Virus record (IMG/VR): IMGVR_UViG_3300033075_001536
Coordinates: 106,679-170,678 of that record
DNA from: a virus
Lineage: Duplodnaviria > Caudoviricetes
Length of the DNA stretch: 64,000 bases
Reading direction: 5' to 3' (one strand)
The notes beneath the pieces are model-generated. The model searched no databases, was not told the DNA's origin, and was given only the letters and a program-made list of their open reading frames with translations. A program made the translations under genes and the position numbers. Of the stretch, positions 47,848-48,297 are shown one piece after another. Position 1 is the first letter of the stretch, and each line of letters starts with the position of its first letter.

Positions 47848-48009
47848 TTAAATACCGAGAAGATATTTAATAGCAATCATTCTAATATATTTTGTTGGTG
47901 CTGGATATATTCTTCCTCTATTTGTTTTTTCAAATGTGGTAAAAATTCCTTCAAGGATATATTTTGAGGAGTTCTTCAATTTTTGATTTTCTGGATTTTT
48001 TGGCAACAT
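47848..48009 (-). CDS. 53-aa protein resembling prohead protease N-terminus plus C-terminal tag
   Basis: MLPKNPENQKLKNSSKYILEGIFTTFEKTNRGRIYPAPTKYIRMIAIKYLLGI. Confidence 0.55.
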   Translation of the reverse strand: MLPKNPENQKLKNSSKYILEGIFTTFEKTNRGRIYPAPTKYIRMIAIKYLLGI

Positions 48010-48140
48010 ACTTGTATATTGAGGAAATTTTATATTTTTGGATCAAATAATGATGATTCACTAATAGTTGGTGTTTTATGTGAGATTATATATGGCATCC
48101 AAACATATCCTGGATTATTTGGTTTGTTTCCAACTTTCAT
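47951..48140 (-). pseudogene. major-capsid C-terminal fragment gene with +1 frameshift in an A5 run, ending in tag
   Basis: MKVGNKPNNPGYVWMPYIISHKTPTISESSLFDPK/YKISSIYKYVAKKSRKSKIEELLKIYP aligns with the MCP at 63758-64000; unshifted frame stops at 48030. Confidence 0.6.
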
Positions 48141-48297
48141 TTAAAAGCTCTTCTATTTTTTCTTTTCGACTGCGTAGATCTGGTGATTGATCACCTATAA
48201 TCATAAAATTACCATATCCTTTTCTAGAAGATTTGTTAATATGTTTAGAAGCTTTAATTAGTTTACTGATTAGCCTCCTTTGATCCAAGCTTTTCAT
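48115..48297 (-). CDS. 60-aa protein resembling a gp23 internal segment plus C-terminal tag
   Basis: QRRLISKLIKASKHINKSSRKGYGNFMII...RSRKEKIEELL; start at Met21 of tracked ORF. Confidence 0.55.
   Translation of the reverse strand: MKSLDQRRLISKLIKASKHINKSSRKGYGNFMIIGDQSPDLRSRKEKIEELLNESWKQTK

Follow-up and report, generated by a model that had tools for sequence, protein, structure and literature searches.

Chained micro-genes resembling slices of head-morphogenesis proteins, with a recurrent C-terminal motif, in a giant T4-like phage

What kind of genes are the three very short, overlapping reading frames that follow a conserved gene in this phage genome, each of them reminiscent of a fragment of a head protein? 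They lie at 47848-48297 of the window, by which we mean the whole stretch of DNA analyzed here, the last 64 kb of a 170,678-bp IMG/VR record (~29% GC). The record is a fragment of a giant T4-like phage, as follows from relatives found via the neighboring 455-aa gene, which occur on contigs of up to 597 kb, and from the likeness of its DNA to 630-640-kb uncultured phages. The original prediction placed overlapping mini-ORFs on the minus strand here, and they are present as described, at 48297-48115 (A), 48140-48030 (B) and 48009-47848 (D). Together they fill the first 450 bp of a 1.27-kb spacer between two conserved minus-strand genes of 455 and 401 aa. The features of this locus, in the order in which the minus strand is read, followed by the two capsid-protein genes elsewhere in the window, are:

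48263-49630, minus strand: conserved 455-aa gene, the syntenic anchor in 67 related contigs; 35 nt at its end are shared with the start of micro-ORF A
48115-48297, minus strand: micro-ORF A, 60 aa, a slice of the major capsid protein (MCP) family followed by the C-terminal motif (tag)
48196-48282, minus strand: MCP-family slice of A, QRRLISK...GNFMII, aligned by profile to MCP residues ~423-451
48142-48171, minus strand: tag copy 1, SRKEKIEELL, 8 aa before the stop of A, 100% kept in homolog P0004
48030-48140, minus strand: micro-ORF B, 36 aa, first half of an MCP C-terminal-slice gene (MCP ~510-539), overlapping the end of A by 26 nt
48035-48039, minus strand: A5 run, in which one extra A splits frames B and C; the frame is single and intact in relatives L108, L111 and L115
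47951-48034, minus strand: frame C, the continuation of B by alignment to relatives (YKISSIYKYVA, compare MCP ...RSRYAVTE), then tag copy 2 and the stop
47966-47995, minus strand: tag copy 2, SRKSKIEELL, read from the sequence, 4 aa before the stop of C
47848-48009, minus strand: micro-ORF D, 53 aa, a protease slice followed by a variant tail, lacking catalytic residues
47893-47964, minus strand: protease N-terminal slice of D, KYILEGIFTTFEKTNRGRIYPAPT, matching prohead-protease residues ~19-45 by HMM and hhalign
47857-47886, minus strand: variant tail of D, IRMIAIKYLL, read from the sequence
47435-47836, minus strand: 133-aa gene starting MKILKFNES, a capsid-targeting-like N-terminus by its sequence, 11 nt past D
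47043-47438, minus strand: 131-aa gene starting MRHIKPFNES, again a capsid-targeting-like N-terminus by its sequence
45783-46988, minus strand: conserved 401-aa gene, by synteny the other edge of the variable spacer in relatives
41765-42601, plus strand: 278-aa MCP-like paralog (short, HK97-like, possibly a vertex protein; E 3.5e-7, HMM positions 400-481)
63761-64000, minus strand: C-terminal 80 aa of the phage's own T4-type MCP, found by profile scan and cut by the contig end

The surroundings offer few further landmarks. Neither the 455-aa nor the 401-aa neighbor matched a Pfam, PHROG or PDB entry, and an Rfam scan of 47300-48800 returned no credible match. There are no terminators, promoter-like sites stay at background level, and the T4 late promoter TATAAATA is not enriched.

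Reading through the chain, the ATG of B stands directly past tag copy 1 (TTAAATGAAAG), and with one A fewer in the A5 run B and C would read as a single 62-aa product covering MCP residues ~510-547. B and C are best read as one gene carrying a 1-nt homopolymer indel, since homology to intact relatives crosses the junction. The shift may be a recent mutation or an assembly error, of which a single extra homopolymer base is a common form, and the B+C copy may be inactive here; a programmed frameshift at this run is not supported, as the relatives read one frame. The order of elements along the chain (MCP 423-451, tag, MCP 510-547, tag, protease 19-45) rules out a simple decayed contiguous copy of the MCP, because each slice has its own tag behind it.

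We have evaluated the similarity of the slices to head proteins with profiles, which take the place of the earlier comparisons with T4 gp23 and gp21. Because the record retains only the last 80 aa of its own MCP and the prohead protease is off the contig (PF03420 had no match anywhere in the record), the parent proteins were taken from five relatives, as five full MCPs and five protease-scaffold fusions. With HMMs of these two clade families we screened the six-frame ORFs of the 170-kb record, 4375 in all when the minimum length is set at 20 aa. The MCP model ranked the true MCP end, the 278-aa paralog, B (E 0.031, positions 510-539) and A (E 0.18, positions 423-451), with noise starting at E 2.2, while the best match of the protease model genome-wide was D (E 0.0053, positions 19-50), the next one standing at 0.71. 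A chance origin is judged very unlikely, because the best non-parent matches of two independent models share the same 450 bp on the same strand. Profile-profile comparison (hhalign) gave stronger values: E 2.1e-4 for A with its homolog against the MCP alignment, E 1.2e-11 (probability 97%) for the B+C family against the MCP, and E 7e-6 (probability 84%, 52% identity over 25 aa) for D against the protease alignment. Thus the likeness of the ORF at 48140 to the MCP C-terminus, proposed by direct comparison, holds genome-wide and at the family level, and the other two resemblances, of the ORF at 48297 to a gp23 segment and of the ORF at 48009 to the gp21 N-terminus, are borne out against the clade's own MCP and protease.

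PHROG scans assigned A to the MCP-type family phrog_28442 (E 0.0035) and D to 'head maturation protease' (E 0.11), and gave no match to head families besides MCP and protease. The nearest relative of A, by a small margin, is not the MCP but its ~260-aa paralog (E 4e-4 to 2e-3). In the scan of this genome Pfam Gp23 (PF07068) did not match the window's micro-ORFs, and ESM Atlas look-alikes of A were uninformative helical matches. The copied blocks coincide with invariant columns of the parent alignments. They are small parts of their parents: A covers ~29 and B+C ~38 of the 573 MCP residues, which leaves no room for a complete HK97 fold (at least about 250 aa), and the hhalign alignment of D is confined to protease residues ~23-48, outside the S77 catalytic domain with its His/Ser residues. 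The capsid-targeting leader MK..[IL]K.F.E is absent from A (MKSLDQ), B (MKVGNK) and D (MLPKNP).

To what extent is the choice of parents specific? In an unbiased census, HMMs of 205 large-protein families were compared with 1348 small intergenic ORFs of three genomes, and the MCP family together with its paralog emerged as the only parents of tagged fragments. Other small-to-large matches comprised domain paralogs, a PG-binding domain, repeats, paralog families and a thymidylate-synthase-like slice, likely a split exon, which we take to be such by eye from its sequence; none of these carries a recognizable tag. Protease and scaffold slices fall below the census threshold and were picked up only by the dedicated HMMs.

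The tag itself, R-[DNK..]-x-K-[LI]-x-x-[ILV]-[LTIF], is concentrated at protein ends, with 18 of its 21 matches in the genome lying within 12 residues of a stop and three elsewhere (terminal positions make up 22.6% of the total; hand-computed binomial ~1e-9, for a pattern written after examples had been seen). A and C are among the 18. All three mini-genes had originally been credited with a common tag, and this stands for A and C (SRKEKIEELL and SRKSKIEELL), while D ends in a variant (R-M-I-A-I-K-Y-L-L) that it has in common with a protease-fragment ORF of a related genome (G003). The motif also occurs on ~16 small proteins of unrelated kinds, zinc ribbons among them, whose genes often form tandem arrays joined by ATGA-type overlaps; those tagged proteins of this genome that were tested gave no match to a family with a named function, anti-defence or otherwise. 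It is a general clade-wide C-terminal motif, not specific to head fragments, and it need not concern the head at all, given these carriers. It is accordingly no marker of a dedicated decoy system. As to whether tagged ORFs are enriched in fragments of core genes, the tagged slices of the census all derive from the MCP family or its paralog.

Codons for the conserved tag residues vary freely (copies 1 and 2 use different codons at 5 of 8 same-amino-acid positions). Constraint thus acts on the tag peptide, because synonymous codons vary between copies, and a purely nucleotide-level element is ruled out. Many tags end in ...TTAAAATGA with the ATG of the next gene inside, so that some coupling constraint is also likely. 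As for the origin of the motif, a scaffold C-terminus carrying it was considered and rejected, the C-terminus of the protease-scaffold fusion being free of the tag. Against the tag matrix, the invariant linker of this fusion, SDESKINE[LI]F, ranks among the best 0.03% of 155,000 windows, a weak lead by which the tag may imitate a scaffold segment.

A has a 63-aa homolog (P0004) from an independent sequencing run, 75% identical overall, with 21 of the 29 positions of the MCP-like block unchanged. P0004 likewise overlaps the gene upstream of it by 35 nt, and behind it come two further intact ORFs, one of 58 aa and one no shorter than 31 aa. No close relatives of A or D were found in IMG/VR, and none of A in JGI metagenomes. 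An exhaustive HMMER search (1.8 billion representatives) provided one short relative of D, a 45-aa ORF from another metagenome (P0131), 53% identical, which sits in a different small-gene chain and has no tag. The two cores share ILEG and NRGRIYPA, residues that the protease itself does not have, and agree at 16 of 22 core residues although the tails differ; over the 23-codon core pN is 0.24 vs. a pS of 0.60.

The B+C family extends to ~10 IMG/VR contigs. Of its intact, single-frame members, L115 and L111 align with B+C through the junction at 59% identity over 34 aa (E 1e-9), and the alignment of L108 spans 61 aa, tag included (E 2e-8). When the joined B+C served as query for a 5-mer search, only the phage's own B came back. 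The B+C-like gene of two genomes (G003 and G004) adjoins the same Dps-like gene, and such genes often come after a ~101-aa gene with a capsid-targeting-like N-terminus, a type of neighbor seen in six relatives. The tag is C-terminal in one subtype but lies within a loop in another, a difference that speaks for its having been gained more than once. Further members of this kind occur in relatives: the above-mentioned 49-aa ORF of G003 contains protease residues 142-164 and a tail (YIRMKIIRNLF) similar to that of D, with only one near-identical copy in IMG/VR; L110 is a chimera of an MCP slice, a protease slice (142-164 type) and the tag; L050 and L051 are scaffold-repeat slices with VRDYKINLLLK ends; and L112-L114 consist of scrambled MCP pieces.

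The same locus in related phages provides the broadest view of what the spacer holds. Across the 67 related contigs the distance between the 455-aa and 401-aa genes ranges from 0 to ~2 kb, and most relatives have a single micro-gene of 55-77 aa in it, a contiguous copy of the MCP P-domain strand and spine helix. This strand-helix micro-gene scores above the Pfam Gp23 cut-off, with E-values as low as 3e-15 over profile positions 131-195, and its C-terminus, RKKKIE-x-L, is the same motif as the window's tags. At least 344 strand-helix clusters, with members of 63-75 aa, came out of a profile search; almost every one has a precomputed PF07068 hit, their contigs reach 649 kb, and most bear either no name or that of 'hypothetical protein'. 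In the family alignment one Asp and the tag Arg are the only invariant columns, the tag Arg and Ile being the best conserved. The slice scores 1e-14 against phrog_138 (canonical T4-type MCPs) vs. 0.06 against phrog_28442, the clade's own MCP family. The window's genome has no strand-helix gene, A, B+C and D standing in its place; the window is thus a slightly unusual instance, in which three slices, one of them from the protease, replace the usual gene.

Conservation in relatives and selection, to which the original prediction had looked for its confirmation, are both seen: dN/dS of the strand-helix gene is 0.10-0.37 in the closer pairs, the D core has a pN below its pS, and A has its homolog. 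Overall, A, B+C and D are three translationally chained micro-genes of a family widespread in giant T4-like phages. Each member combines one conserved head-morphogenesis block (from the MCP family or prohead protease, and in relatives from the scaffold) with a basic amphipathic helix motif, R-[KD]-x-K-[IL]-x-x-[IL]-[LF], and the copies appear to be kept by protein-level selection.

The reading that we rank first, and advance tentatively, is that the micro-proteins are accessory or modulating components of prohead assembly acting via molecular mimicry at head-assembly interfaces. Under this model the copied block would occupy the surface that normally contacts the same block in the MCP, protease or scaffold, while the tag would serve as a common docking or oligomerizing helix through which the micro-proteins attach to one and the same partner, perhaps the scaffolding core, so that the whole could act as a small accessory or modulating part of the assembling prohead. 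It is ranked first because of the head-protein parentage of the slices, the capsid-targeting-like neighbors and the scaffold-like tag, and the neighbors make it fit at least as well as an immune role. Several points weigh against it: the tag is found on the ~16 unrelated small proteins and is missing from the C-terminus of the protease-scaffold fusion and from P0131, B+C is frameshifted in this genome, the strand-helix slice is odd as a partner of the phage's own shell, because its likeness to canonical T4-type MCPs far exceeds that to the clade's own MCP family, and slices of 25-35 aa may be unable to fold or bind alone.

Several other explanations account for part of the same evidence. The slices might copy motifs read by bacterial defences and bind the sensors without activating them, or saturate them; the position of the copied blocks at invariant columns of the parent alignments, the description of Lit and CapRel as detecting the MCP via short sequence motifs (PMC13581612), and the conservation of the micro-genes under selection all suit such immune decoys, the main idea of the original prediction. 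Of that prediction, the reading of the ORFs as tagged copies of conserved head-protein blocks is supported. Nevertheless, one would expect the copy of a motif that sets off a defence to set it off as well, not to block it; the relatives' strand-helix slice is unlike the phage's own MCP in that very block, and no tagged protein tested in this genome matched a family of known function, so that we consider decoys unlikely, although the likeliest of the four rivals of the preferred reading. The slices could instead be aimed at competitors, co-assembling with, and poisoning, the head proteins of relatives or of canonical T4-like phages that infect the same cell; the phage's own proteins would have diverged enough to escape. 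The far better match of the strand-helix gene to canonical MCPs (Gp23 3e-15, phrog_138 1e-14) than to the clade's own (0.06) fits such a weapon, and the parent proteins work as oligomers in assembly, the kind of target classically poisoned by dominant-negative fragments; A, B+C and D, however, are of the clade's own type (phrog_28442 and the clade HMMs) and would therefore strike the phage itself or none but its close kin, which makes this a very unlikely account. A bolder proposal, in which a recognition block joined to a universal docking helix would form a modular micro-protein library, a programmable mimicry that blocks host sensors or poisons the head assembly of rivals, with the spacer as a cassette site for swapping slices, may be entertained as possible but somewhat unlikely.

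The remaining two explanations give less meaning to the slices. The tag could be all that matters, as a sorting, turnover or packaging signal, with the head-like slices as raw material from illegitimate recombination whose parentage is meaningless. The ~16 unrelated small carriers, often in tandem with ATGA-type overlaps, the standing of the tag Arg and Ile as the best-conserved strand-helix columns and the varying position of the tag among B+C subtypes agree with it. Yet the head-like cores are conserved beyond the tag (A and P0004 at 21/29 residues, D and P0131 at 16/22 with differing tails), the strand-helix block is kept in at least 344 clusters, and the tagged fragments of the census came only from the MCP family; this possibility is, in our estimate, quite unlikely. 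Least probable, and highly unlikely, is that the chain is mere debris, the non-functional, decaying remains of recombination in a hyper-variable spacer. The frameshift between B and C and the range of the spacer among relatives (0 to 2 kb) could be read in this way, but an independent sample preserves the whole of A, at 75% identity and within the same gene chain; unbroken ORFs of the B+C and D types occur elsewhere; and synonymous codon changes separate the two tag copies, whose peptide is kept. The extra base in the homopolymer may equally be an error of assembly.

In the literature we found no description of free-standing genes for capsid or protease slices, and the class appears not to have been described before. 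Current phage annotation has no place for genes that are under selection yet encode no more than one slice of a capsid protein or head protease. Modulation of head assembly by such genes would be of consequence for the construction and size of very large capsids; as decoys or anti-competitor peptides, the genes would constitute a new class of phage counter-measure, a peptide mimicry of the phage's own core proteins. The presence of a shared C-terminal motif on many unrelated small proteins suggests, in addition, a common partner.

A side-by-side comparison with known systems helps to place these genes. A and B+C have their counterparts in the T4-type MCP gp23 and its vertex paralog gp24 (PF07068, HK97 fold), being homologous by profile comparison to conserved blocks of this family. 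In contrast to gp23 and gp24, the micro-genes are slices of 45-90 aa, with one helix or a few strands and no possibility of an HK97 fold, and they carry an added basic motif that the MCPs do not have. The T4 prohead protease gp21 (PF03420, Peptidase_S77) stands in a similar relation to D, which copies ~25 N-terminal residues with 52% identity to the clade protease, but in its 53 aa has neither catalytic domain nor catalytic residues. The tag may be likened to the cargo-loading peptides of encapsulins, an HK97-fold shell system in which a short C-terminal peptide is found on unrelated proteins; the sequences are unrelated, and the analogy lies in the C-terminal place and the unrelated carriers.

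The decoy reading has its basis in Lit, which responds to the Gol peptide of T4 gp23, and CapRel, where short MCP motifs are what the defence recognizes (PMC13581612). There, unlike in the micro-genes, the motif sits in the full MCP and triggers the defence, and no free-standing MCP slice is described (PMC13581612). For the head-assembly reading, two small proteins of the T4 prohead core, gp67 and gp68, probably take part in setting the size of the head (PMC9958956, PMC9026906). These, like the proteins with capsid-targeting sequences, are small and belong to a T4-like head system; the micro-genes adjoin genes with capsid-targeting-like N-termini, and the assembly-shaping role proposed for them would be similar. 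The micro-genes show no sequence similarity to gp67 or gp68 in the PHROG scans, and their motif is C-terminal, whereas the capsid-targeting sequence is N-terminal. A final parallel is provided by CpmB of SaPI1, which competes with the scaffold of phage 80alpha for a site on the capsid protein (PMC5644958). CpmB is satellite-encoded and not a fragment of a capsid protein, so that it is likened to the micro-genes by logic, homology not being expected; the logic of competition would nevertheless be the same as the one proposed here for a tag joined to a mimic block.

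The C-terminal tag, a short basic helical motif, is a recurrent feature of these genomes: across the whole record, the pattern [YI]-R-D-x-K-L-E-x-I-L-K is C-terminal on approximately 16 or more unrelated small proteins, whose genes are often arrayed in tandem with start/stop overlaps of the ATGA type. Carriers within the window include:

26411-26617, minus strand, tag-motif carrier
29208-29792, minus strand, tag-motif carrier
40265-40894, minus strand, tag-motif carrier

A tag-like segment that is internal, not terminal, is observed in a conserved 555-aa protein (window 26610-28277, minus strand). 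In each of the three genomes this segment lies at residue 245 and takes the form D[KR]R[DE].K[LI]..[LV]L; a tagged 69-aa ORF directly follows the gene.

Slices of head proteins, some of them scrambled or fused, are found at loci on related contigs:

L112-L114 (e.g., L113:1441-2303), scrambled pieces of the major capsid protein (MCP)
L110:1468-1686, chimeric micro-ORF joining an MCP slice, a protease slice and the tag
L050:735-1467, minus strand, scaffold-repeat-slice micro-ORFs
L051:1045-1368, minus strand, scaffold-repeat-slice micro-ORFs

At L112-L114, a 74-aa ORF holding the C-terminal strands of MCP is overlapped by a 213-aa ORF that fuses the spine-helix block to the N-arm block, and the scaffold-derived micro-ORFs terminate in VRDYKINLLLK. 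A 59-aa ORF of the related phage G003 (35716-35892, plus strand) is without the tag, and its match to a 378-aa protein (window 35150-36286, minus strand), which we take, judging its sequence by eye, for a thymidylate synthase look-alike, is confined to residues 244-282 of that protein; this ORF has the appearance of a gene that was split or interrupted rather than of a tagged slice.

Further genes that resemble the MCP gene, lie next to it or have capsid-targeting-like leaders are:

41765-42601, plus strand, 278-aa MCP-like paralog, kept in relatives
G003 31936-32718 and G004 (another related phage) 68506-69261, its counterparts, about 258-261 aa
62790-63650, minus strand, gene closely downstream of MCP, with CapR-homology, treble-clef zinc-finger (DUF4379) and DUF559 endonuclease-like matches
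47435-47836, 47043-47438 and 3565-3870, all minus strand, small genes with capsid-targeting-like leaders (MKILKFNES, MRHIKPFNES and similar)

The 278-aa paralog is a possible vertex protein with a minimal HK97 fold, and the gene adjoining MCP may encode a homing-type endonuclease. An additional MCP-like paralog in G004 (1125-1898) has the tag at its end. In relatives, the ortholog of the 101-aa gene at 3565-3870 lies upstream of B+C-like micro-genes (MCP slices); in the window, a 213-aa gene occupies the place held there by the micro-gene.

Protease and MCP genes share an upstream element, TAAAAAATCCAC (in G003 at about 53870-53960 and 56180-56270, in G004 upstream of 8474 and 6313), with ATATATA approximately 25-30 nt 3' of it. 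For 17-30% of genes, ATATATA alone occurs upstream at a distance of 8-70 nt, and it is almost absent within coding controls. It is likely a promoter element of the clade.

Among the related contigs sharing the syntenic spacer (L003-L069), a conserved micro-gene of 55-77 aa (about 5330-5600 per locus; e.g., L022:5367-5576) copies no more of the MCP than the strand and the spine helix, matches Pfam Gp23, forms at least 344 clusters and has a dN/dS of 0.1-0.4; it is closer to canonical T4 MCPs than to the MCP of its own clade.
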